From assembly GCF_030013205.1 (NCBI RefSeq), contig NZ_CP122649.1: a stretch of 64,000 nucleotides of DNA; one strand, written 5' to 3'. The DNA is from Escherichia coli (lineage in GTDB: Bacteria > Pseudomonadota > Gammaproteobacteria > Enterobacterales > Enterobacteriaceae). Positions 1 through 58,669 of the stretch are shown here, piece after piece; the first letter of the stretch is position 1; every line of letters starts with the position of its first letter. Below the pieces are notes generated by a model. That model had not been told where the DNA came from and searched no databases. It saw only the letters and a program-made list of their open reading frames with translations. A program made the position numbers and the translations under genes.

Positions 1-1
1 C

Positions 2-1381
2 CTTGCACCTGTAACTTCAGAAGTCGATGAGATCATTCATCAAGCTCTAAGTTGCAAAAGTACGCAAAATTGCGATTCTCTGGCGCGTAAAACTCTGGCT
101 CTTTTAGAGCGTTTAAGGGATGAAGCAAAAGAGAAACAGCAAGAAGAGGAGCAGTCGAAAGACCCGCATGACGATACAGATGAATCATCTGGCTCTGAGA
201 ATGAACCTGATACCGAACCCAATGGTGATAGCCAGGGTGAAGGGGATGGTGATAAAGAAGGTCAAGGCGATGATTCTGGTGATGGTAAGGCGCCTGCGGA
301 AGGTAATGGGTTACCGGACCAATCCGGAGGGGATGAACAAAATGCTGAGAACTCTAACGGCGAACCTGATGGTGAGTCTGAAGGTGATGAATCGGCGACC
401 CCCGGCTCGGATGATGCTGACTCGACACCTTCCCTAAACGACAGTTCAAATGGAAATTCTTCTGATGGGGAAAGTAACTTTTCTCCTGAACAGTGGGATA
501 TGCTTGCCAAATTGCTGGATGATTTTTTAAACAGTGATGAGGAAAGCGAGGATTTTCATGAGGTTCTTGCAAAAGAGATCTCCGTAATTGCTGCCAGTGT
601 GTCGGATGAGGTTAAAGCTGAATTTGGTGCAAGTGAGTGGGATGTTCCAGATTTGAACATTGATCTGAATGTCTACAATGAAGCATTAAATATCAGCCAG
701 ACCCTTGGGGCAGATTTATCTGTTTTACAGCAGGTAAAAATGCGTGGTCAATTTAAAACCCGTGATAGAGGCTTGTCATTCGATATTAATCGACTGATCC
801 AGTCTCCGATGGGTGTTAGGGATGTATTTCGGTCACAAAGCGAATCTAAAAACCGGGGCCACGTCGGCTTGGTCATTGTTCGTGATATTTCAGGTTCAAT
901 GAGTCTGGAACACCGTTATATCCATGCAATTAAGACTGACCTTGCATTAACTCTGGCAATTGAAGCTATTTCAAAAATGCATGTTGCTAATGTGATTTAT
1001 CCGTTTGTAGACAAAGATTTTGAAGTTATCAAAACGTTTGATGAAAACGCGGAAGAGAAACTTTCAAAATTCTCACTTGGCTGCAAGGGCAATAATACCC
1101 CAACGGGTTCTGCATTAAATGCTGCTTTAGAGTTGTTACTTGAAAGCCAGTTTGACAGGAAAATTGTTTTCCTTATTACTGATGGTTATCCGACTGAGTC
1201 GGCTTACACCATTAATGATGTTTTTTCAGTTGCTGAAAGTAACGGCATTGAAATCGCTGGTGTTGGTATTAAAACTGATGTGTTGATGGGTTTTAATGAG
1301 GGCACCTTCGTAAATGTTGATGATATTTCTTTATTGCCGAATGAGGTCAGTAAATTAGTACATCAAATTCTATCTAATTAA
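2..1381 (+). CDS. CobT-like vWA-domain protein, 5' end outside window
   Basis: Frame is open from nt 2 and continuous with tracked ORF 500..1381. A D/E/G/S-rich acidic linker (~nt 150-480) is followed by vWA/MIDAS-type motifs DISGSMS, TPTGSAL and FLITDGYP. The CobT-like call is by architecture recall only. Confidence 0.7.
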   Translation, partial: LAPVTSEVDEIIHQALSCKSTQNCDSLARKTLALLERLRDEAKEKQQEEEQSKDPHDDTDESSGSENEPDTEPNGDSQGEGDGDKEGQGDDSGDGKAPAEGNGLPDQSGGDEQNAENSNGEPDGESEGDESATPGSDDADSTPSLNDSSNGNSSDGESNFSPEQWDMLAKLLDDFLNSDEESEDFHEVLAKEISVIAASVSDEVKAEFGASEWDVPDLNIDLNVYNEALNISQTLGADLSVLQQVKMRGQFKTRDRGLSFDINRLIQSPMGVRDVFRSQSESKNRGHVGLVIVRDISGSMSLEHRYIHAIKTDLALTLAIEAISKMHVANVIYPFVDKDFEVIKTFDENAEEKLSKFSLGCKGNNTPTGSALNAALELLLESQFDRKIVFLITDGYPTESAYTINDVFSVAESNGIEIAGVGIKTDVLMGFNEGTFVNVDDISLLPNEVSKLVHQILSN

Positions 1382-1386
1382 ACTCT

Positions 1387-1452
1387 ACCCAATCGGGGCA
1401 AAACGACGCCCGGTTGGGTCGCTTTGCTCCCTGAAGGATTAAGGAGCAATAT
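1387..1452 (+). promoter_or_regulatory. Structured leader with stem A/A' and an anti-SD hairpin upstream of the 73-aa gene
   Basis: 1387-1397 acccaatcggg pairs with 1409-1419 cccggttgggt (one G.U). 1424-1430 ttgctcc pairs with 1443-1449 ggagcaa, covering the aggag SD. 1395-1401 ggggcaa is an alternative partner of ttgctcc. Confidence 0.55.
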
Positions 1453-1674
1453 ATGACTCAGATAAAGACTTACCGTGTCGAGTATGAAAAAGTCGGGACG
1501 ATGCATCGTGTCCGTATTTTTGGTCGCATGGGTGAAATTGTCAAAAGTGAATTGCCAGAAGAAAGAATTCTCCGGGATGTATCTATACCAGAGGGTAATG
1601 GAGAAATGGCAACGTCAATGGTTGATGGTTTTATCCAGCGTCTTGAAAATATCGGCTTCAAGACTGAAGCGTAA
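1453..1674 (+). CDS. hypothetical protein (73 aa)
   Basis: ORF track; strong SD aaggag 7 nt upstream; lies between the vWA and primase-like genes on the same strand. Confidence 0.6.
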   Translation: MTQIKTYRVEYEKVGTMHRVRIFGRMGEIVKSELPEERILRDVSIPEGNGEMATSMVDGFIQRLENIGFKTEA

Positions 1675-1715
1675 TTGTTGAGGGCTCTTGTGGGCCCTCA
1701 TTCTTAGATTCTGCG

Positions 1716-1770
1716 TTGTGGGTTTCTCCCTGTTTTCTGCATCGCAGAGGGCATTGAGAAACCCACAATG
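1716..1770 (+). promoter_or_regulatory. Leader hairpin occluding the start codon of the primase-like gene
   Basis: 1716-1728 ttgtgggtttctc is perfectly complementary (13 bp) to 1756-1768 gagaaacccacaa, which ends on the A of ATG 1768. An inner 5-bp stem tctgc/gcaga lies at 1736-1748. Confidence 0.55.
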
Positions 1771-3021
1771 CCAGATAAGAGAGAACAAATGACTTATGCA
1801 TCCCAGGCTGTTAAGCGTACACCACATGAAGTCACTGACCACTTTATAAAAATGGTTCACGCTCGTATAGCGGAAGTATCAGGCTGGCGCTATGTATTCG
1901 ATAGAATACCGGCATTTAAAGACGCTTGTGATAAAGCACCTGGCCAGGTTCCTTGCCCATTTAGTGGGGTCGGGAAATCAAAGTTCCGGTTCCGTAAAAA
2001 GGACCTCTTTACCGGTTGTGCCATTCACAATGATTTTCCAGTGAATGCATTTTGTGACGGTATTGATGTATTGGCAGAGTACTACAAGCTGAGCAAGACC
2101 CAGACTTGTAAGAAGATCCTGACTGATTTCTTTGGGATGGATTTGTACGCTCCATTAACTGATGCGGATCTCGAAAGTGAACGTCGTTATAAATCAACAG
2201 TTCGTGCAACCGAAACGCTTGACAGCGATGAAGTTGAAAAACGAGGGCGTAAACTTGAAGTGATATATCACTATACCGGTGAAATCAAACCTGAGAGCCC
2301 TGTGTGGGTGTATCTCCGAAATCGAGGTCTTAATCGAGTTCTGAGCAACCTTCCCAAGGATTTAGGTCTGAACAAACGACTTTACTACATGGATAAGTCA
2401 CTGGAAAAACCCACGATTTACCCGGGAATGATCGCAATTTATCGCGATACCCGTGGGCGTCCTCTGACAATCCACAGAACGTTCGTCGAGTTAAATGGTG
2501 ATAAGGCACATGTTGAGAATCCGAAACTGATGATGAAACCGCCTGCCGATATGACTGGCGGCTCAATTCAGCTGTACGATCCACACTTCAATCCAGGTAC
2601 CCGTACCTGGACGTTAGGTGTGGCTGAAGGCATAGAAAACGCGCTGTCAGTTACTGAAGCGACTTCAACACCGTGCTGGGCCGCGAGCTCTGCCTGGTGC
2701 CTTGAAAACGTTGAAGTGCCGGATAGTCTCCTGCCTCCCCCTGGTGTGAAAGTAATACAGTTTTACATCTGGGCGGATAAGGATCTTGTGAATACAAAAG
2801 GCACTTCCCCGGGAATGGAGTCAGCTAAACGACTTCAGGAACGTATGAAAGAGTTTTTTGCAAAGCGATATCCCACTTCAGAGCTGACAATTAAAGTCTT
2901 TGAACCTGATTTCGATATTCCTGTAGGGAAGAAAGGAGTCGACTGGAACGATGTACTAAAATTAACAGGACCGGATGGATTCCCCGTAAAATGGGCTCCT
3001 GAATGTCTTGCTCAGCTTTAA
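1768..3021 (+). CDS. primase-like protein (degenerate Zn-ribbon + Toprim domain)
   Basis: 417 aa. The N-terminal PCPFSG..KFRFR..GCAIHN resembles a primase Zn-binding ribbon. The Toprim-type acidic motifs are LGVAEGIENALSV (E) and IWADKD (DxD). Confidence 0.65.
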   Translation: MPDKREQMTYASQAVKRTPHEVTDHFIKMVHARIAEVSGWRYVFDRIPAFKDACDKAPGQVPCPFSGVGKSKFRFRKKDLFTGCAIHNDFPVNAFCDGIDVLAEYYKLSKTQTCKKILTDFFGMDLYAPLTDADLESERRYKSTVRATETLDSDEVEKRGRKLEVIYHYTGEIKPESPVWVYLRNRGLNRVLSNLPKDLGLNKRLYYMDKSLEKPTIYPGMIAIYRDTRGRPLTIHRTFVELNGDKAHVENPKLMMKPPADMTGGSIQLYDPHFNPGTRTWTLGVAEGIENALSVTEATSTPCWAASSAWCLENVEVPDSLLPPPGVKVIQFYIWADKDLVNTKGTSPGMESAKRLQERMKEFFAKRYPTSELTIKVFEPDFDIPVGKKGVDWNDVLKLTGPDGFPVKWAPECLAQL

Positions 3022-3027
3022 ATCCGA

Positions 3028-3070
3028 TAACTCCCCCGCCTTTTCAGGCCGGGGGGGTTATCTCTTTAGT
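3028..3070 (+). terminator. GC-rich hairpin after the primase-like gene
   Basis: taactcccccgcc / ggccgggggggtta stem followed by the T-rich tctctttagtgtttattt. Confidence 0.5.
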
Positions 3071-3294
3071 GTTTATTTACGTTAAATCCTAAACAGATAA
3101 TCCGATTTCCTTCGTGAAAATCACCTGTTATTCAGGTTTTTTTTACGGCTGAGATGCTTGCTCAGTTTAATAAATGTGCGATACATCTGGCTACGGTCGG
3201 TTGTATGACATGGTATATCCATAAAACTTAAAACCCCTGACGGGAGTATTACCGTTAGGGTGATGCTCATCGTTAAATATCGGAGAGCATTGTT

Positions 3295-3819
3295 ATGAAT
3301 ATTGAAAATCAAGATTTATTTAATACGTTCGCTGCTGTGATTTCATCTCATATCGTTGAGCAACCATCTTCGTGTTATTACCTTCATGATAATGAAATTG
3401 ACTTCACGATTTTAAAACACAGCATAATAGATAAAGACAAAAACCTGTTGTACGTTATTCGTCCTTCAGGAACCTGTTTGTTGCGTTGTGATAAATACTT
3501 CTTTCCGAATTACTATCTTACAAGTCGTGGAGATTATAAAGCATTTAAGTATGTGCATTTTAATCTTGCAACACGAGAAGCGGAAGAAATCACCTGGCAG
3601 CAAGCTTTTGAAATTTTGTCCAAGCCGGGAAGACCTCCATTAAGAGGTTCACTTGGTAAATTTGATTATTTAAAACTTGTTATTGATGATCTTCGTGCGC
3701 GAGGGTATGCCGATTTCCTTCCAGCATACAACCTTGATGGCCTTCGTCACTTTGCAGTAAAGGATGAGCGACCATCACTTGTCAGTTATATCGACAATGT
3801 CATGGCACTTTGCGCATAA
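3295..3819 (+). CDS. hypothetical protein (174 aa)
   Basis: ORF track; SD-like ggagag 9 nt upstream; no motif recognised. Confidence 0.55.
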   Translation: MNIENQDLFNTFAAVISSHIVEQPSSCYYLHDNEIDFTILKHSIIDKDKNLLYVIRPSGTCLLRCDKYFFPNYYLTSRGDYKAFKYVHFNLATREAEEITWQQAFEILSKPGRPPLRGSLGKFDYLKLVIDDLRARGYADFLPAYNLDGLRHFAVKDERPSLVSYIDNVMALCA

Positions 3820-3843
3820 AGATAACACATATTTTTACTACAT

Positions 3844-3867
3844 CCCTGATGGCACCTCCCATCGGGG
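3844..3867 (+). promoter_or_regulatory. Leader hairpin (partial member of the CCCAyyGGGG leader family)
   Basis: ccctgatgg (3844-3852) pairs with ccatcgggg (3859-3867), 9 bp with one G.U. It lies 30 nt upstream of ATG 3897. Confidence 0.4.
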
Positions 3868-3896
3868 TGGCCCTCAGAGTTGAATCTGGAGGTCTT

Positions 3897-4775
3897 ATGA
3901 AATTAGCTACAGATCTGGTCAATGCGGTTCTGATAAAGAATGGCATTGTACCAACTTCCATTAATGAGTTGCCTGTAACGTCGCTGGTAAAGCCATTGAC
4001 ACAAGTGCATCTCAGCCTGTATCTGAAAACAACGCATTTATCTCAGTTCGTCCCTGACTACGTTGAGTCTCTGAAAGATTGTCCGGTTTCGTATGATATC
4101 GGCCTTGAACTTCAGCAGTGTATCAACAGTGCTGAATTGCTCTGTGAAGACATGGAGTCACTTGAGTTTATCTCTGTATGGATAGAGCTCTATACGTGTA
4201 ATTCAAAGCAACAGCGGTTTGAGAAAAGTAACTTTTCTTTTCGAACTGAAGATATCGAGCTGGCTAAGATGCTGTCTTGCTCGCATGAAATCTTAATAAG
4301 TCAGGCGGCTTGTTTCTGGCTTTTGTATTTTGAAGATTTCATGAAATATGTTCGTAATAGGCTCTGTGCATTACTCAGACAGGTTTTAATTTTGATTGCA
4401 GGACTGCGAAATGTATACCTGCAACGGAATGAAGATCAGTTGATTAAGAGAGTTAAGCACGGGAATGAAATGCTGGAGGTGACTCTTAAAGCTGTTGCAC
4501 TATGTTCAATAGAAAGGTATCTGAAATCATATGCCTCTTTACGAACAGAAGCGGCGGCTTCTGGGTTTATCAAATGCATTCAGTCTTATATCAGTACTGG
4601 TTGGAGACATGGCTATATAGTCTGTCAATATTCAAAAAATGGACGGTCTCTTGGTAAGTCATTACCACTTTTTATAAAAGAGACATCTGAGCATAATATA
4701 CAGAAACGTGTCAATCGCCTTATATCTTCCACGATTTCGGGGCGAAATAAAGATTTAGGTCTTTACGATTTCTGA
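3897..4775 (+). CDS. hypothetical protein, paralogue family member P1 (292 aa)
   Basis: In-frame ATG at 3897 with SD ggagg, preferred over the tracked start 3810. The N-terminus MKLATDLVNAVLIKNGI resembles the N-termini of the next four genes. Confidence 0.6.
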   Translation: MKLATDLVNAVLIKNGIVPTSINELPVTSLVKPLTQVHLSLYLKTTHLSQFVPDYVESLKDCPVSYDIGLELQQCINSAELLCEDMESLEFISVWIELYTCNSKQQRFEKSNFSFRTEDIELAKMLSCSHEILISQAACFWLLYFEDFMKYVRNRLCALLRQVLILIAGLRNVYLQRNEDQLIKRVKHGNEMLEVTLKAVALCSIERYLKSYASLRTEAAASGFIKCIQSYISTGWRHGYIVCQYSKNGRSLGKSLPLFIKETSEHNIQKRVNRLISSTISGRNKDLGLYDF

Positions 4776-4783
4776 TTAACATT

Positions 4784-4848
4784 ACCCATCCGGGGATTAC
4801 ATCCCTGATGGGTGTAATCCCATTTTTTATTTAAGTGAGGATTACATG
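4784..4848 (+). promoter_or_regulatory. Three-way leader switch upstream of P2
   Basis: A 4784-4795 pairs with A' 4802-4813 (11 bp, 1 mismatch). B gggattaca 4793-4801 pairs with B' tgtaatccc 4813-4821 (9 bp perfect, followed by a U-run). B' also pairs with C ggattaca 4839-4846 (SD plus the A of the ATG). Confidence 0.6.
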
Positions 4849-5781
4849 AAAATTATTGAGAAAATCATTAATGCATTTCTGATATCGCGTAAACATTCAG
4901 TGAAGGTCAGTAATGTTATCTGCTTGAGTGGCACCGACGGTAAATTTACTGGAATATGCTGTGACGCCGATGTTTCATTTGATTTTCTTTATTCGTATGC
5001 CCCCGCATACAGTTCAACATTTTTAGATATCCCGTTTCCTGGGTTTGAAGACCAGGACATCGCGGATTGTGTTAAATGTCAGTTAGATGTAGTTAAAAAT
5101 AAACGGAATCGGTCTTTTTTAATTGACCATATTAGATTTCCAGTTTCCTCAAGGGAAGGATTCACTCTGACACGCGGTGATAGTTACGACGTGACTGAAT
5201 GTGAATATAATAAGGAACGATTGCTACATCTGACCCGACAAGGACGTTTTTGTGAAGACTATCTCACGTTCAAGGATGGCCTGAGTTCCTTCTTTTCATT
5301 TGTGAATTTCGAATTACATGAAATAGTGAAGGAAGGTATACGTTTGGCACTTGATGTTTTAAACAAGATTACATCTGATCAACCAGACCGTCTTATAAAA
5401 GACTTTAAGTATCATGATTGCTTCGGCAGTTATAATGTACAAATATTTTCTAAGGGTCTGCCAGTTGATATCCTTGAAACGATGATTGCACCTGATAGGT
5501 TGTTGTCTAACTTGTCAGGTAGTCGTCAGATTATGAAAAATGCAAGTCGCTATCTTAAAGGCTTTGCCCTCAGTAATCGTGTTTACATGAAATACGGATG
5601 GCGTTTAGCAGATGTTGACACATCTGACTATGCGAAAGTTATGTCAGATAGAGAAATGCATGCCAGAGATGATCTTAAGGCGTTTTGCAGTGTCTTTTTT
5701 AAAGAGTGTTTCGCATCCGGAAAATATGAATACGAAGCATACCTGAGTGAAAGACAACACGCGATTCGTAACGGGTATTAA
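4846..5781 (+). CDS. hypothetical protein, paralogue family member P2 (311 aa)
   Basis: ORF track; SD gagga. It shares MK.I.KII.A.L at the N-terminus and the block SGSRQIMKNASRYLKGF with P3 (SGADKFLNHVNRYLSGR). Confidence 0.7.
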   Translation: MKIIEKIINAFLISRKHSVKVSNVICLSGTDGKFTGICCDADVSFDFLYSYAPAYSSTFLDIPFPGFEDQDIADCVKCQLDVVKNKRNRSFLIDHIRFPVSSREGFTLTRGDSYDVTECEYNKERLLHLTRQGRFCEDYLTFKDGLSSFFSFVNFELHEIVKEGIRLALDVLNKITSDQPDRLIKDFKYHDCFGSYNVQIFSKGLPVDILETMIAPDRLLSNLSGSRQIMKNASRYLKGFALSNRVYMKYGWRLADVDTSDYAKVMSDREMHARDDLKAFCSVFFKECFASGKYEYEAYLSERQHAIRNGY

Positions 5782-5803
5782 TACTTATTATCAACTTATC
5801 TAA

Positions 5804-5861
5804 TCCCTGAGGGAATTCTTCCCTTGGGGAGGATTCCCTCTTAACCGAGGGCTACAAAATG
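5804..5861 (+). promoter_or_regulatory. Three-way leader switch upstream of P3
   Basis: A 5804-5814 pairs with A' 5820-5830 (11 bp, two G.U). B gagggaattc 5809-5818 pairs with B' ggattccctc 5831-5840 (10 bp). B' ccctc also pairs with the SD gaggg at 5847-5851. Confidence 0.6.
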
Positions 5862-6779
5862 AAAGCGATTTATAAAATAATTGAAGCGATGCTGGTGAAA
5901 ATGGGCTTTGAAGGTGCCGTGATCCAAAGTGTCAATCTGGAAACGGGTGTGATTCAGAGTCTAGTTGTTAAGGCTGATATTCCTGTCCGGACTTTAATGC
6001 CGCATTTAAGGCGATATCTGCGCGATTGTGAGCCTTTATGGGGACATGACGTGGATTACCACCCTATAGCACAATATTGCTCAGGAGCTGCGTTGTTGAA
6101 GGCTGGGCCGGTCACTCTTGAAACCTTTCGGTTTGAGGTTTCAGTGTCAACTGCTCACCTGCGGCTTGTGGATGTTGAGCCGGACTGTCTAAATGAGGGT
6201 GTGAACCGTGAAAAACTGGAGTATGTATATTACCGCTCCAGCAATGCAGACAAGGATCTAATACTTGGTATGGTTGAAAAAGGACATAATTTTATCAACC
6301 ATCTGCATGAACTTTTACGCTCGCGCTTATCAACGGCTTTGCCGCTGATTTTCGCAGTTACAGAAAAGATTGCGGAGAGTTCAGTTCCACAAGTAGTCAC
6401 CAGCTTTTTCAGTGTTGACCATCAAATCAATGCCCAGATAGTAGTCGAACCTGTACCCGTTTCAGTCGCAGACCAGATAATTTCTGCTGACTGGAATGTG
6501 TGTAGTGTTTCAGGAGCGGATAAGTTCCTGAACCATGTTAATCGTTATCTGTCGGGTAGGGTGATGAAGCGGCGTATTTACGCTGTTATAGAAGCTTGCG
6601 ACGGTGGATCTTTATCCCTCAATGCGAACTTAGGTTGCTTTACATCACCTCTTCTCGTAACTGAGTATAAAATGGTTCAGTCACACTCTTCATCGCTTTA
6701 TCGAAAGGCTATAAATAACTCGCTTAAGCAAGTTAATTCGTATGCTCCAGAGCATTCAGATGACCTGCTTTCTATGTAA
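5859..6779 (+). CDS. hypothetical protein, paralogue family member P3 (306 aa)
   Basis: ORF track; SD gaggg 7 nt upstream; sequence blocks shared with P2. Confidence 0.7.
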   Translation: MKAIYKIIEAMLVKMGFEGAVIQSVNLETGVIQSLVVKADIPVRTLMPHLRRYLRDCEPLWGHDVDYHPIAQYCSGAALLKAGPVTLETFRFEVSVSTAHLRLVDVEPDCLNEGVNREKLEYVYYRSSNADKDLILGMVEKGHNFINHLHELLRSRLSTALPLIFAVTEKIAESSVPQVVTSFFSVDHQINAQIVVEPVPVSVADQIISADWNVCSVSGADKFLNHVNRYLSGRVMKRRIYAVIEACDGGSLSLNANLGCFTSPLLVTEYKMVQSHSSSLYRKAINNSLKQVNSYAPEHSDDLLSM

Positions 6780-6787
6780 TTAATTTT

Positions 6788-6854
6788 ACCCATTGGGGAA
6801 GCGTATTCCCCGTGGGGGTTGCTTCCTTTCTTCATTAAAGAGGAAGTGAATATG
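6788..6854 (+). promoter_or_regulatory. Three-way leader switch upstream of P4
   Basis: A 6789-6799 pairs with A' 6807-6816 (10 bp, one bulge). B ggaagc 6797-6802 pairs with B' gcttcc 6821-6826. B' cttcct 6822-6827 also pairs with the SD aggaag at 6841-6846. Confidence 0.6.
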
Positions 6855-7787
6855 TTTAATGAAAGTGATGATAAAAACTTTGTTAGTGCAATGCTTAAAT
6901 GTCAACTTGGCCTGAATATAAGCCAAGAGGATATTACAATATATGACAAAGAAAATCATTTTGAACAACTTTCTTTTAAAGCAAATGTGGCGCTTGATGA
7001 TTTGTTATTTTATCTGGATTTATATATATCAGAATTGATTAAGCATAATGCGCCGTATTCTGAAACTGAAGTCCTTCGGACTAAAATCAAATACTTTCTT
7101 AAAGTATATGAAAAGTCTGGTTTTCAGAACATAAGAATTCGCGGTTATCATAACGCGCACAGTACTATAGATATTGTCGATATCGCATCATTAATATTGG
7201 CGGGGTCTGTACCGGAGTCTGAACATGATTCAATAGATCCTGTTTTAAGAAAGGAAATCTATCAAAATCGCATGAGTGTTGAGGGTAAAGTTCTCATTGC
7301 CCGTTTTGCACTTAAGCAATTTTTCCATTCTGATTTTGGTGATTTCATCTTAGAGTTCGAGAAAAGTATCTCCAAGTGTTTGAATACTTCTCTCCAGATA
7401 ATTAAATCTGTAAAGAACTCATTTAACCGTTTAGGTCAATATCAATATCAGCGTCGTGTAAAAGATGACCTGACTTTGCATCTTGATTTGAATACAGATG
7501 AATACCCGGCCTGTATGCCAGACCTTTACATCGGTTTCAAGGAGTCTGAAGGGACGACGGGAGTGTATCGCGATGATGAAAAAATCATTCGTCTTTATAC
7601 TGGCGTTAGTTCCGGAAAGGATGTTCCTGTAATGATGACCGTTCGATTCACTGGCTGTGACGGGAGTGTTTTGTCTGAATCATCGCACGGTACTTTCTGT
7701 TCCGTGGGACCTACCGGCCGAGTGCAGGTTTGTGACAGAGTTGCGTTGGTCCAAGAAGCGGTCGAAGAGTTACGGGATGTTGTTTAA
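6852..7787 (+). CDS. hypothetical protein, paralogue family member P4 (311 aa)
   Basis: ATG 6852 with SD gaggaag, preferred over the tracked start 6819. Clear similarity to P5: GKVLIARFALKQFFHSDFGDFI vs GQVLIARFALEKFWDTHFIGLI, and YQYQRRVKDDLTLHLDL vs YSYTRRITDELSLHISL. Confidence 0.7.
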   Translation: MFNESDDKNFVSAMLKCQLGLNISQEDITIYDKENHFEQLSFKANVALDDLLFYLDLYISELIKHNAPYSETEVLRTKIKYFLKVYEKSGFQNIRIRGYHNAHSTIDIVDIASLILAGSVPESEHDSIDPVLRKEIYQNRMSVEGKVLIARFALKQFFHSDFGDFILEFEKSISKCLNTSLQIIKSVKNSFNRLGQYQYQRRVKDDLTLHLDLNTDEYPACMPDLYIGFKESEGTTGVYRDDEKIIRLYTGVSSGKDVPVMMTVRFTGCDGSVLSESSHGTFCSVGPTGRVQVCDRVALVQEAVEELRDVV

Positions 7788-7902
7788 CCCTTGTTTTTTA
7801 CCTCTTCATTCCAAAAAGTAACTTTGTTCTACCAAATGACCGCGCTACCTATTCTGATCAACTTGCAGGAAAGAATGGCGCAGTAGTACATATTTTTAAT
7901 CC

Positions 7903-7966
7903 ACCCACTGGGGAAGTCGCTCCCCTGTGGGGCACTTCCTTTAATAATCCTGAGGAAGTGAAGATG
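7903..7966 (+). promoter_or_regulatory. Three-way leader switch upstream of P5
   Basis: A 7905-7915 pairs with A' 7921-7931 (10 bp, 1 mismatch). B ggaagt 7913-7918 pairs with B' acttcc 7934-7939. B' cacttcct 7933-7940 also pairs perfectly (8 bp) with the SD region aggaagtg at 7953-7960. Confidence 0.6.
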
Positions 7967-8920
7967 ACTAATTCTACTGATAACCAGAACTACGTTCGTG
8001 CAGTACTGGCAGGCATTGGTATTGATTTTGATGAAACAGAGATGTTTATCAGTGTCTCTCATTGCCAGAGCGACGAAGTTTCGTTTACATGCAGTATATC
8101 AGCCAGTGAGTTAAGAGAATCTGCGGGGCATTATGTGGATACTCTTAATGATACCCAACTGGCTGGCCTGGATGCGGATGCACTCAAGAAGCGACTGGTT
8201 TACTTCCTTGAGGTTTTCGACCTGGTTTCCGGTCAATATCTGGATATTTCCGGTAAACATTTCGCGACCAGCCGCTTTGAATACGACGATGTCTGTAGTG
8301 AGATCCTGAGTAACTCTGCGGACAGCGCCCAGCCAGGTGGCTATGATCGTGAAGAGTACAAAAGACTGATGGAAGTTGATGGTCAGGTTTTAATCGCCCG
8401 ATTTGCACTGGAAAAATTCTGGGATACGCATTTTATTGGGCTTATCAACTATGTATCAGATGAAATAACATCCGGGCTTTATGAGGTTTATCGCACGTTC
8501 AGTGATATAAACATGGCCGGTTATACATTTAGTGAGTATTCATATACGCGTCGTATTACCGACGAACTTAGTTTGCATATTTCACTTAAAGAGGACGATT
8601 TCGAAGAGCAATTAACCGATTGTTATATGGATGAAACAACGCTGCCGTCTGGCAAGGTGGTTTTACGCCGTAATAATGAATCAATTATTGGGATTTATGA
8701 AGGATATGCTTCAAAATCTTACTTTCCTATGGTTGCTAATGTTAGAGTCCTTGATACAGATGGTGAAGTTGTTACTGAACTTTACCAAGGGGTGAATGTA
8801 TCAGAATTAGCTGGTGGTCGGATTAAAATCCATGACCGTCAGGAATTAATTTCTGAGGTGTTCGCTAACTTACGTGAATTCATCCCAGCATCAGAGGATA
8901 AAATCTTTGATGCGGCATGA
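7964..8920 (+). CDS. hypothetical protein, paralogue family member P5 (318 aa)
   Basis: ATG 7964 with SD gaggaag (the tracked start 7958 is a GTG two codons upstream); similarity to P4. Confidence 0.7.
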   Translation: MTNSTDNQNYVRAVLAGIGIDFDETEMFISVSHCQSDEVSFTCSISASELRESAGHYVDTLNDTQLAGLDADALKKRLVYFLEVFDLVSGQYLDISGKHFATSRFEYDDVCSEILSNSADSAQPGGYDREEYKRLMEVDGQVLIARFALEKFWDTHFIGLINYVSDEITSGLYEVYRTFSDINMAGYTFSEYSYTRRITDELSLHISLKEDDFEEQLTDCYMDETTLPSGKVVLRRNNESIIGIYEGYASKSYFPMVANVRVLDTDGEVVTELYQGVNVSELAGGRIKIHDRQELISEVFANLREFIPASEDKIFDAA

Positions 8921-8966
8921 GTCCTGAAGGTTGAATTATATATTTTCAGGTTTTTATACTTCTAAG

Positions 8967-8996
8967 AAGGCACGGTTATCCGTGCCTTTTTTTTTG
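8967..8996 (+). terminator. Rho-independent terminator ending the P1-P5 operon
   Basis: Stem aaggcacgg / ccgtgcctt with loop ttat, followed by a run of 9 T. Confidence 0.8.
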
Positions 8997-10512: not shown

Positions 10513-10585
10513 TGTTTTCCAACCTATTGGGGAAATTCCGGAATGTGTTTATATAGCTGTAAGTAAAGCACTCTACAGGTAAATA

Positions 10586-11122
10586 ATGAAAAGCAAAATT
10601 CACTCTTCAGGAACGTCCGGCACGAAACGAGTACTTAAAACGGATATTGCGTTGCCTCTGCTTTGTTGGGTGTTCACCAGTCCATTCAGTAACTGGACTG
10701 ATAAGTTTTTTACCGGCACAGAAGTGCCGGAGGGCTCGCTGCCGGGTCTAGAACAGGCGCCTGAGGCTATCTTCCGATTTGTGCTCAATGACGAAGGTTT
10801 TGATGTTGGTTTTGACGCGGTGGGAATGGATCTCTGTTGTTTCTCTATCCCGCTTTCGACGATGCCCACAAAGAATCTGGACGACGAAGAGACGTTGTCG
10901 AGGCTTACCGGCGACGTGATACACGGCGTCCTGCTTTCGCTTCCGGAGTACATTGAAATGCCAGACAGGCTGGTCTATCAGCTAACTGATGAGGTCATGG
11001 CGTTCAATTCACACTGTGGCAACGGAATTCTACATGGATGGACGACGGCTCAAGAGTTGTGGCGAAACGAGATCCTGCCACGCACCACTATTTTGATGCA
11101 GCAGACATCAGTCATTCACTGA
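10586..11122 (+). CDS. hypothetical protein (178 aa)
   Basis: ORF track; same strand as neighbours; weak SD. Confidence 0.5.
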   Translation: MKSKIHSSGTSGTKRVLKTDIALPLLCWVFTSPFSNWTDKFFTGTEVPEGSLPGLEQAPEAIFRFVLNDEGFDVGFDAVGMDLCCFSIPLSTMPTKNLDDEETLSRLTGDVIHGVLLSLPEYIEMPDRLVYQLTDEVMAFNSHCGNGILHGWTTAQELWRNEILPRTTILMQQTSVIH

Positions 11123-57340: not shown

Positions 57341-58669
57341 CTGATGAATCCCCTAATGATTTTTATCAAAATCATTAAGTTAAGGTAGATACACATCTTG
57401 TCATATGATCAAATGGTTTCGCCAAAAATCAATAATCAGACAACAAAATGTGCGAACTCGATATTTTACACGACTCTCTTTACCAATTCTGCCCCGAATT
57501 ACACTTAAAACGACTCAACAGCTTAACGTTGGCTTGCCACGCCTTACTTGACTGTAAAACTCTCACTCTTACCGAACTTGGCCGTAACCTGCCAACCAAA
57601 GCGAGAACAAAACATAACATCAAACGAATCGACCGATTGTTAGGTAATCGTCACCTCCACAAAGAGCGACTCGCTGTATACCGTTGGCATGCTAGCTTTA
57701 TCTGTTCGGGCAATACGATGCCCATTGTACTTGTTGACTGGTCTGATATCCGTGAGCAAAAACGGCTTATGGTATTGCGAGCTTCAGTCGCACTACACGG
57801 TCGTTCTGTTACTCTTTATGAGAAAGCGTTCCCGCTTTCAGAGCAATGTTCAAAGAAAGCTCATGACCAATTTCTAGCCGACCTTGCGAGCATTCTACCG
57901 AGTAACACCACACCGCTCATTGTCAGTGATGCTGGCTTTAAAGTGCCATGGTATAAATCCGTTGAGAAGCTGGGTTGGTACTGGTTAAGTCGAGTAAGAG
58001 GAAAAGTACAATATGCAGACCTAGGAGCGGAAAACTGGAAACCTATCAGCAACTTACATGATATGTCATCTAGTCACTCAAAGACTTTAGGCTATAAGAG
58101 GCTGACTAAAAGCAATCCAATCTCATGCCAAATTCTATTGTATAAATCTCGCTCTAAAGGCCGAAAAAATCAGCGCTCGACACGGACTCATTGTCACCAC
58201 CCGTCACCTAAAATCTACTCAGCGTCGGCAAAGGAGCCATGGATTCTAGCAACTAACTTACCTGTTGAAATTCGAACACCCAAACAACTTGTTAATATCT
58301 ATTCGAAGCGAATGCAGATTGAAGAAACCTTCCGAGACTTGAAAAGTCCTGCCTACGGACTAGGCCTACGCCATAGCCGAACGAGCAGCTCAGAGCGTTT
58401 TGATATCATGCTGCTAATCGCCCTGATGCTTCAACTAACATGTTGGCTTGCGGGCGTTCATGCTCAGAAACAAGGTTGGGACAAGCACTTCCAGGCTAAC
58501 ACAGTCAGAAATCGAAACGTACTCTCAACAGTTCGCTTAGGCATGGAAGTTTTGCGGCATTCTGGCTACACAATAACAAGGGAAGACTCACTCGTGGCTG
58601 CAACCCTGCTTACTCAAAATCTATTCACACATGGTTACGTTTTGGGGAAATTATGAGGGGATCTCTCAG
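57341..58669 (+). mobile_element. IS10 (1,329 bp), outside end at 57341 and inside end at 58669 (Tn10 arm)
   Basis: Ends ctgatgaatcccctaatgatttt ... ggggaaattatgaggggatctctcag; exact length. The IS10 RNA-IN/RNA-OUT antisense region is expected near 57387-57455 from the literature (not independently verified). Confidence 0.95.
57448..58656 (+). CDS. IS10 transposase
   Basis: 402 aa, MCELDILHDSLYQFCPELHLKRLNSLTLACHALLDCKTLTL... Confidence 0.95.
   Translation: MCELDILHDSLYQFCPELHLKRLNSLTLACHALLDCKTLTLTELGRNLPTKARTKHNIKRIDRLLGNRHLHKERLAVYRWHASFICSGNTMPIVLVDWSDIREQKRLMVLRASVALHGRSVTLYEKAFPLSEQCSKKAHDQFLADLASILPSNTTPLIVSDAGFKVPWYKSVEKLGWYWLSRVRGKVQYADLGAENWKPISNLHDMSSSHSKTLGYKRLTKSNPISCQILLYKSRSKGRKNQRSTRTHCHHPSPKIYSASAKEPWILATNLPVEIRTPKQLVNIYSKRMQIEETFRDLKSPAYGLGLRHSRTSSSERFDIMLLIALMLQLTCWLAGVHAQKQGWDKHFQANTVRNRNVLSTVRLGMEVLRHSGYTITREDSLVAATLLTQNLFTHGYVLGKL

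Follow-up and report, generated by a model that had tools for sequence, protein, structure and literature searches.

Plasmids of the incompatibility groups IncHI1 and IncHI2 rank among the main vehicles of multidrug, mcr and typhoid resistance, and two thirds of the genes in their backbone have no known function. How a row of such genes is translated from a shared message is the question raised by a 64,000-nucleotide (nt) stretch of Escherichia coli DNA (contig NZ_CP122649.1 of assembly GCF_030013205.1; the whole stretch is referred to here as the window), in which closely related RNA leaders stand in front of one gene after another of a single operon. An earlier note, made from the letters of this stretch, had described in these leaders the elements A, A', B, B' and C, the last being the Shine-Dalgarno (SD) and start region, and had proposed that A pairs with A' and that B' pairs either with B or with C, so that mutually exclusive folds would hide or expose the SD. 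Every string that it quoted is present at the positions given, and the leaders indeed constitute a family with three pairings, which is larger than noted and whose two predicted folds are both kept by compensatory change in at least nine plasmid lineages with proteins that have diverged to ~50% identity. The data fit a model, to which we would give an even chance, in which the leader acts in cis as a two-state translational-coupling switch with erm-like logic that is flipped by a terminating ribosome; that the leaders control translation, and what triggers them, is inferred.

The window belongs to an IncHI1 plasmid, its first 9 kb being 100% identical to the IncHI1 plasmids pHCM1 and R27. The leader-bearing cluster comprises 15 genes on the same strand, starts after the helicase gene trhI and closes at a strong terminator at 8964-8991. 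Two terminator-like hairpins (3038-3058 and 3123-3137), both within a 274-nt spacer, divide this cluster into two transcription units, the second of which codes for a protein of 174 amino acids (aa) and five tandem paralogs of ~310 aa. The window holds seven leader copies of 58-70 nt, each finishing at a start codon (Table 1). Each of the six spacers that the earlier note had named (before the genes starting at 1453, 3897, 4846, 5859, 6852 and 7964) folds into a tandem pair of hairpins, A:A' followed by B':C, and it is the 3' arm of B':C that carries the SD and ends 0-7 nt before the ATG; the fold z-scores of the leaders against dinucleotide shuffles range from -2.5 to -5.9. A seventh copy, absent from the list of the earlier note, lies at 3233-3297 before the first gene of unit 2, and five related spacers of the same operon are found just upstream of the window. 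Three of these five have the full layout, one has a B' that pairs with the SD and no B partner, and in one A:A' alternates with B:B' and the SD is left unpaired. Overall, the element is repeated ~11 times per plasmid, all within one operon.

The layout behind these folds is a register shift between GC clamps, 5'-CCC1-x-GGG2-y-CCC3-x'-GGG4-y'-CCC5-(AU-rich loop)-GG(SD)-y-AUG. In state I, (CCC1 x GGG2) pairs with (CCC3 x' GGG4) and (y' CCC5) pairs with (SD y), which results in two tandem hairpins of which the second buries the SD. In state II, (GGG2 y CCC3) pairs with (GGG4 y' CCC5) in a single continuous hairpin of ~12 base pairs (bp) with x' as its loop, and both CCC1-x and the SD region are left single-stranded. 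State II is one continuous hairpin that extends beyond B:B' alone because A' itself reads CCC..GGG, a feature that the first reading had missed. The leader thereby contains two pairs of mimics: CCC1 and CCC3 are rivals for GGG4, and B (GGG2-y) and C (SD-y) are rivals for B' (y'-CCC5). This double mimicry accounts for the uniform consensus of A, even as y differs in every leader.

Comparison across lineages indicates that both folds have been maintained. A covariance model (CM) was built on state I, and 55 leaders were aligned to it. For state I, 77.3% of the alignment cells are paired as compared with 64.6% in shuffles, double-change cells number 215 as compared with 104, and the covariation score is 0.380 as compared with 0.190 (0/500 shuffles; slid controls 0.11-0.19). 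For state II, to which this alignment was not fitted, 80.5% of the cells are paired (72.6% in shuffles), with 66 double changes (32 in shuffles) and a covariation score of 0.330 (0.229 in shuffles, 0/500; slid controls 0.14-0.24), the best of all registers. When RNAalifold is applied to a plain MAFFT alignment of leader family 5, the consensus is state II, and for families 7 and 11 it is state I. The pairing is also specific to the individual leader: cognate B:B' duplexes average -10.9 kcal/mol and non-cognate ones -6.7 kcal/mol (p=4e-22, a value that overstates independence, the instances being related), and in nine orthologous families native arms beat lineage-swapped arms for both B':C and state II, with 0/2000 permutations reaching the observed value. 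Specifically, in spacer 11, which holds the leader of paralog 2 (4783..4848), three elements change jointly between IncHI1 and IncHI2, namely B from GGGATTACA to GGGATCACA, B' from TGTAATCCC to GTGATCCC and C from GGATTACA to GGATCACA. In spacer 5, a change of B' from GGTTTTCCC to GGGTTTCCCC is matched by a change of C from GAAAACC to GAAACCC, and in spacers 11, 12 and 13 the hairpin-1 stems have been rebuilt with a different x and x'; the 5' ACCC of the leaders is nearly invariant. The covariation of B, B' and C that had been read from the copies of one stretch therefore holds between homologous plasmids, where substitutions preserve the pairings of both folds.

Two other readings of these elements were tried and rejected. 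An H-type pseudoknot, in which the hairpin-1 loop would pair with B' and A:A' would stay intact, fails because a connecting loop (L3) of 0-2 nt cannot bridge a stem of 10-11 bp, and CsrA-type twin GGA sites as the source of the likeness between B and C leave the covariation of the flanking bases with B' unexplained.

How widely is the element distributed? The operon is syntenic in IncHI2 (~75% DNA identity; 52% for paralog 2) and in an 89% lineage, and five further lineages were reached via DUF3150 homologues of 47-72% identity. Leaders are present throughout the compared lineages, from which two frameshift-ridden assemblies (L004 and L010) were excluded, and a Buttiauxella lineage from the genome collection, which was not used in model building, has seven copies. 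The CM search of plasmids that the earlier note had suggested was carried out over 373 kb, made up of the window, pHCM1 1-111 kb and the loci of the other lineages, which partly overlap. All plus-strand hits at E<1e-3 fall inside this operon, all 55 of the 55 strong hits finish exactly at independently annotated start codons, and at this threshold the plus strand gave no hit in window positions 9000-64000 or in the first 84 kb of pHCM1 (1-84 kb), which together cover ~130 kb of the plasmid outside the operon. A DUF3150 profile search of genome contigs returned IncHI-like loci only, with no distant operon of the SXT/IncC type among them. Rfam 15 contains no match to the leaders at the gathering threshold, and at E up to 1 it yields chance hits only over positions 1300-8100, which agrees with the first impression that no described family has this layout.

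The predicted energetics indicate a leader that is closed by default and poised to change. Across 54 distinct leaders, state I averages -29.5 kcal/mol (hairpin 1 -18.0, hairpin 2 -11.5) and state II -19.1 kcal/mol, and state I is the minimum free energy (MFE) fold in nearly all leaders of 10 lineages. By these predictions, state I is the thermodynamic and, from the order of synthesis, also the kinetic product. Among same-strand spacers of 30-135 nt in pHCM1, opening of the SD costs 9.3 kcal/mol in the operon's 12 spacers and 4.7 kcal/mol in 24 others (Mann-Whitney p=6e-4). Predicted direct-path barriers amount to 18-23 kcal/mol from state I to state II, which means that state I needs an active opener, and typically ~11 kcal/mol in the reverse direction, so that state II would persist for roughly seconds.

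What could act as the opener? In the proposed switch, hairpin 1 of the ground state would lock up B, which consists of GGG2 and the loop y and imitates the ribosome-binding region, and the anti-SD strand (y'-CCC5) would pair with the true SD region, such that the downstream gene could not start alone. Occupation of the 5' strand of hairpin 1 would then allow GGG2-y-CCC3 to re-pair with GGG4-y'-CCC5, and the formation of state II would strip the anti-SD strand from the SD and open the start site. The most likely occupant of CCC1-x would be a ribosome terminating on the upstream gene, and a leader flipped in this way might stay open for roughly seconds, which would couple the translation of successive genes in a relay across spacers of 55-80 nt. 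The anti-SD strand itself lies well beyond the upstream stop and is never within reach of the upstream ribosome, so that an SD mimic is needed as go-between.

The positions of the leaders and the effect of a simulated block are consistent with such a relay. When the stop codon and the following 9-13 nt are blocked, the predicted cost of opening the SD falls by 4-9 kcal/mol in families 5, 11 and 13 and in the majority of family 7 (in the leader of paralog 2 from ~10.5 to 3.7 kcal/mol upon blocking of the stop and 13 nt), at the expense of just 2-4 bp at the foot of hairpin 1. This block frees the SD only in copies near the stop, and masking is restored when it is extended into B. The distance from the upstream stop to hairpin 1 is at most 12 nt in 26 of the 55 leaders, 13-18 nt in 8 and more than 18 nt in 21. 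In nearly every lineage, hairpin 1 of families 5, 7 and 11 begins ~4-13 nt past the stop (one copy at 15), and the distance is no more than 12 nt in every lineage but one. RNA-unfolding coupling with a spacing of +52 nt is established for rpmI-rplT (review PMC12548453).

The start of each unit is a particular case, as the first gene of unit 1 has no leader and the first gene of unit 2 has one. A short open reading frame (ORF) at 3205-3231 (ATGACATGGTATATCCATAAAACTTAA, MTWYIHKT*) stops 2 nt before hairpin 1 of this first leader of unit 2. Its start, ATGACATGG, is kept in 6/8 lineages and its peptide is not conserved; in most lineages the frame closes ahead of hairpin 1, within it or where A' meets B'. 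This ORF could supply the triggering ribosome, or its conservation could belong to a promoter. The 176-nt spacer that precedes paralog 5 contains a 16-codon ORF at 7836-7886 (MTALPILINLQERMAQ*), whose end is separated from hairpin 1 by 17 nt; the 89% lineage has an ORF of about this length at the corresponding place, and IncHI2 has none there. Small ORFs from an ATG inside A' (for example from 4809 onward) are not conserved between lineages and were treated as chance.

Several points weigh against a terminating ribosome as the trigger, or limit how firmly the evidence for it can be read. The 21 of 55 leaders with more than 18 nt between stop and hairpin 1 include families 6, 10 and 12 in IncHI1/HI2 and family 14, where the distance exceeds 70 nt. 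A ribosome at a stop codon has its helicase site ~5-7 nt and the edge of its footprint ~9-12 nt beyond, which places these leaders out of its reach and makes even 8-11 nt marginal. Furthermore, the element is anchored to the downstream ATG rather than to the upstream stop. Together, the distant leaders and this anchoring imply that the trigger differs or that distant copies open in another way. In a random-library screen, structure right after the stop correlates negatively with coupling (review PMC12548453). In addition, the lineages are related, so that the statistics and the counted cells overcount events, the CM alignment is fitted to and leans toward state I, the CM E-values are rough, and all energies are nearest-neighbour predictions.

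The distant leaders are accommodated by an account in which the bistable leader is the same and the trigger is a cut by RNase E, either in the AU-rich loop of the SD hairpin or in an AU-rich linker. Following such a cut, B would displace the severed C, state II would shield the upstream 3' end, and the downstream cistron would be left with a free SD. Since this trigger is independent of stop distance, it fits the 21 of 55 distant leaders as well as the promoter-proximal copy; the loop of hairpin 2 is 79% A+U and 49% U, state II resembles a terminator or 3'-stabiliser hairpin, and processed transcripts are documented for another R27 operon (PMC7366339). However, an AU-rich loop is to be expected wherever a hairpin has to remain open, and the persistence of hairpin 1 close to the stop across lineages in families 5, 7 and 11 is left unexplained by RNase E, which we consider an unlikely trigger.

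A further account dispenses with switching altogether: hairpin 1 would serve as an intercistronic stabiliser or insulator, hairpin 2 would damp translation, and B:B' would be a by-product or a folding aid. Its attraction lies in the energies, as 10 kcal/mol separate state II from the more stable state I and a barrier of ~20 kcal/mol makes unaided switching negligible, and many leaders lie far from a stop. Static hairpins do not, however, explain why B:B' is leader-specific, co-evolves within families and covaries beyond the shuffled and slid controls, or why the variable triplets y, y' and y(C) change jointly, and a by-product would not survive down to 50% protein identity. This account, too, appears improbable.

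Could the leaders act on transcription instead? State II followed by a U-tract would then be an intrinsic terminator and hairpin 1 an antiterminator, and a ribosome on the upstream stop would favour termination, a trp-type logic that would set the polarity of the operon. The earlier note had remarked that the copy at 4793-4830 looks like an intrinsic terminator, and this part of its reading stands for that copy, as no site in 9.4 kb resembles a terminator more closely than the hairpin at 4793-4821 with its tail ATTTTTTATT. It does not stand as a general trait: at least five T within the 8 nt after state II are found in 22/55 leaders, mainly in families 5, 6 and 11, whereas a U-tract is absent from every copy of families 7, 10 and 12, and in lineage L008 an A-run takes its place. 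A general terminator function was rejected on this lack of conservation. An attenuator would also give the conserved B':SD pairing no role, would terminate transcription precisely when the upstream gene is translated and would leave the downstream genes silent in either state, which together leave this explanation with a slim chance.

Opening by a factor acting in trans on the conserved ACCC-x strand or on the GGA loop, be it an RNA-binding protein, a small RNA, a helicase, a cold-shock chaperone or temperature itself, is slimmer still. The near-invariance of the 5' ACCC would suit a binding site, and a single factor could open all leaders together. By our own gene-order mapping, unit 1, the first nine genes of the operon, appears to match the R27 cluster R0002-R0204, which a microarray study found induced 5-23 fold at 25 °C as compared with 37 °C alongside the transfer (tra) genes and to which no function was assigned (PMC7366339). 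Yet the register shift already accounts for the conservation of CCC and GGG, no candidate factor was identified, and the cost of opening the SD is 11.7 kcal/mol at 25 °C, 9.4 at 37 °C and 8.5 at 42 °C, and is thus higher in the cold. An RNA thermometer of the ROSE or fourU type was rejected on the same opening costs and on the ~20 kcal/mol barrier from state I.

That the element is a DNA-level repeat rather than an RNA (a recombination site, a REP/MITE-like element or a cruciform) is very improbable, for although its arms are palindromic and weak minus-strand CM hits occur at the same loci, these score about half of the plus-strand hits, the copies all lie on one strand, include the SD, end at start codons and occur nowhere else in the ~130 kb of the plasmid searched, G-U pairs are frequent, and the sense strand folds better than the antisense strand (-29.2 vs -27.3, p=0.0016). 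A dispersed repeat of the REP, BIME or ERIC kind was rejected since strong hits lie on the plus strand only, within one operon and tied to start codons. A single-stranded-DNA promoter of a leading region was rejected as well, since the hairpins are short and the region, whose trhI we take to be the Tra2-side helicase of the R27 layout, is presumably not next to oriT.

Table 1 Leader copies in the window, with covariance-model (CM) hits, hairpins of state I, state II hairpin and predicted energies (kcal/mol)
Leader of	Position	Strand	CM hit	Hairpin 1	SD hairpin	State II hairpin	Energy I	Energy II	z	Remark
73-aa gene (ATG 1453)	1386..1455	+	39.4 bits, E=1.7e-6	1387-1419	1424-1449	1395-1430	-29.6	-19.0	-3.84	hairpin 1 begins 6 nt past upstream stop
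174-aa gene (ATG 3295), first gene of unit 2	3233..3297	+	weak, 23.2 bits, E=0.012	3235-3260	3262-3291	3239-3274	-29.0	-19.6	-5.93	same place in 8 lineages
paralog 1 (ATG 3897)	3842..3899	+	37.5 bits	3844-3867	3869-3894	3848-3875 (weak)	-26.2	-12.2	-2.53	hairpin 1 begins 24 nt past upstream stop
paralog 2 (ATG 4846)	4783..4848	+	48.7 bits	4784-4813	4814-4845	4793-4821 (12 bp), then ATTTTTTATT	-30.7	-19.5	-5.53	clearest copy
paralog 3 (ATG 5859)	5803..5861	+	40.5 bits	5804-5830	5836-5851	5809-5840	-26.1	-23.1		states nearly iso-energetic; hairpin 1 begins 23 nt past stop
paralog 4 (ATG 6852)	6787..6854	+	52.9 bits, E=1e-9	6789-6816	6819-6849	6795-6828	-28.3	-18.2	-4.01	hairpin 1 begins 9 nt past stop
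paralog 5 (ATG 7964)	7902..7966	+	38.8 bits	7904-7931	7933-7960	7910-7941	-31.6	-17.2	-4.54	hairpin 1 lies 116 nt from upstream stop

Beyond the copies in Table 1, the operon and its surroundings contain related and unrelated structures. Upstream of the window, positions are given in pHCM1-based coordinates, L001, from which a window position follows by subtracting 12000 before the G-run at 3046-3053 and 12001 after it. At L001 8674-8732 (pHCM1, ~3.3 kb upstream of the window), a variant leader precedes the gene of an AAA ATPase. Here, CTGGCA/TGCCAG (A:A') competes with GCAAACAtC/GgTGTTTGC (B:B', followed by ATTTT), B' is unpaired with the SD, and the MFE fold varies among lineages. Further downstream, a partial A-like motif (CCTATTGGGGAAATTCC) at 10523-10540, in the spacer before the gene at 10586, gives no CM hit and shows moderate SD masking only (5.4 kcal/mol); it could be the remnant of a former copy or a chance resemblance. 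Another kind of structure occupies the spacer that separates the 73-aa gene from the toprim gene, with a GC hairpin at 1679-1700 (GAGGGCTCT..GGCCCTC) and a very stable, nearly perfect 52-nt hairpin at 1716-1767, for a total of -53.7 kcal/mol over the whole spacer. The 52-nt hairpin is kept in all lineages with compensatory changes and abuts the ATG at 1768. In other lineages the start is annotated at the in-frame ATG 21 nt downstream (window 1789), which makes 1768 doubtful as a start, and by this comparison of annotations it is probably not the true toprim start.

In the window, the G-run at 3046-3053, which lies in the 3' arm of the terminator hairpin behind the toprim gene, is one G shorter than its counterpart in pHCM1 (NC_003384); no other difference from that plasmid was seen across 9 kb. 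The nine genes of unit 1 span window positions 1-3021 together with pHCM1 84470-90155 and include AAA_5 ATPase, DUF3150, VWA and Toprim_3 proteins. The five tandem paralogous genes of unit 2 occupy positions 3897-8920, code for proteins of 292-318 aa with a mutual identity of only ~15%, and are kept in most lineages (2-5 copies). Searches of Pfam, PHROG and PDB sequences gave no match to the paralog proteins; for paralog 2, AF2 gave a poor model (pLDDT 62.7), with which a Foldseek search against the PDB found no fold match. The main text of a proteomics study (PMC5390554) contains no gene-level data. The window's only Rfam hit at gathering level is RNA-OUT, the IS10 antisense RNA, at 57386-57455 on the minus strand (97.3 bits), which implies that a Tn10/IS10 copy is present in the window.

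What would these leaders represent in the wider repertoire of RNA regulation? It is possible, if on balance slightly doubtful, that they belong to an undescribed class of modular strand-displacement RNA switches with an internal mimic of the ribosome-binding site (RBS), by which translation would be handed down the messenger gene by gene: a ribosome finishing gene n, or another active opener, would flip leader n+1. If true, this would enforce ordered or stoichiometric synthesis of an operon that is switched on with IncHI conjugation; few parts of R27 are induced more strongly by cold than the nine-gene unit, which carries several leaders (PMC7366339). The leaders would also present a natural, repeated and highly evolvable case of coupling at a distance and a clean system for separating RNA-unfolding from ribosome-scanning models of translational coupling, a choice that a 2025 review describes as unresolved (PMC12548453). 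Finally, their design could be taken over directly into synthetic operons, where it would be the natural equivalent of toehold and translation-coupling cassettes. Whatever the mechanism, the family is a well-supported new candidate for Rfam, found ~11 times per plasmid in at least nine lineages, with covariation in both of its folds.

Comparison with known systems places this proposal between two established principles. As in the translational attenuators of ermC and cat, the ground state consists of two hairpins of which the second sequesters the SD of the regulated gene, and both systems move from 1:2 plus 3:4 pairing to a middle pairing; in both, a ribosome on the 5' strand of hairpin 1 permits the middle pairing that strips the anti-SD from the SD, here as a proposal. 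They differ in that ermC and cat rely on a stalling leader peptide and an antibiotic inducer, whereas a full-length upstream gene and a putative termination trigger would take these roles here. The upstream ORFs are full-length genes of 73-670 aa rather than leader peptides, and a candidate short ORF (3205-3231) is found at the promoter-proximal copy alone. Moreover, the competitor here is the 3' half of the 5' arm of hairpin 1 together with its loop, that is, the SD mimic, and not the 3' arm, and ~11 copies occur within one operon.

In RNA-unfolding coupling, as in rpmI-rplT, the coat-lysis and replicase genes of MS2, genes VII-IX of f1 and the conformational switch of atpH-atpA, a structure likewise silences the downstream RBS, upstream translation is the proposed opener, and spacings of about +50 nt are known (PMC12548453). 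The downstream RBS is sequestered in the IncHI leaders as well, by the predicted opening costs of 9.3 vs 4.7 kcal/mol and the mean of -11.5 kcal/mol for hairpin 2. In contrast to these systems, in which the inhibitory strand lies within the upstream ORF or is overlapped by it, the corresponding strand here lies 35-45 nt beyond the stop, in a module that is contained entirely within the spacer and positioned relative to the downstream ATG.

Other plasmid systems share single features. In repY-repZ of IncB, IncI-alpha and IncL/M plasmids and in tap-repA of IncFII plasmids, the next RBS is concealed by a structure that opens upon termination at an upstream ORF; these plasmid-borne systems occur as one copy only, make use of a pseudoknot and of an antisense RNA, and serve replication control, whereas no antisense RNA or pseudoknot is evident in the IncHI leaders. 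The hok/sok messengers also use mutually exclusive pairings (tac/fbi, ucb/dcb) and metastable states to set the accessibility of the SD, by way of long-range pairing between the 5' and 3' ends, 3' processing and an antisense RNA; their topology differs, and there is no sequence or structural homology to the IncHI leaders. Some copies, in particular that at 4793-4830, resemble trp-type attenuators in that an antiterminator-like hairpin 1 is set against a terminator-like state II with its U-run. The leaders differ from these attenuators in having a U-tract in only 22/55 cases, no regulatory codons and an extra conserved pairing with the SD. Taken together, this comparison suggests that translational attenuators and RNA-unfolding coupling come closest among known systems, and that the IncHI leaders, which lack the leader peptide of the former and lie only in part within the reach that the latter calls for, are a member of neither.

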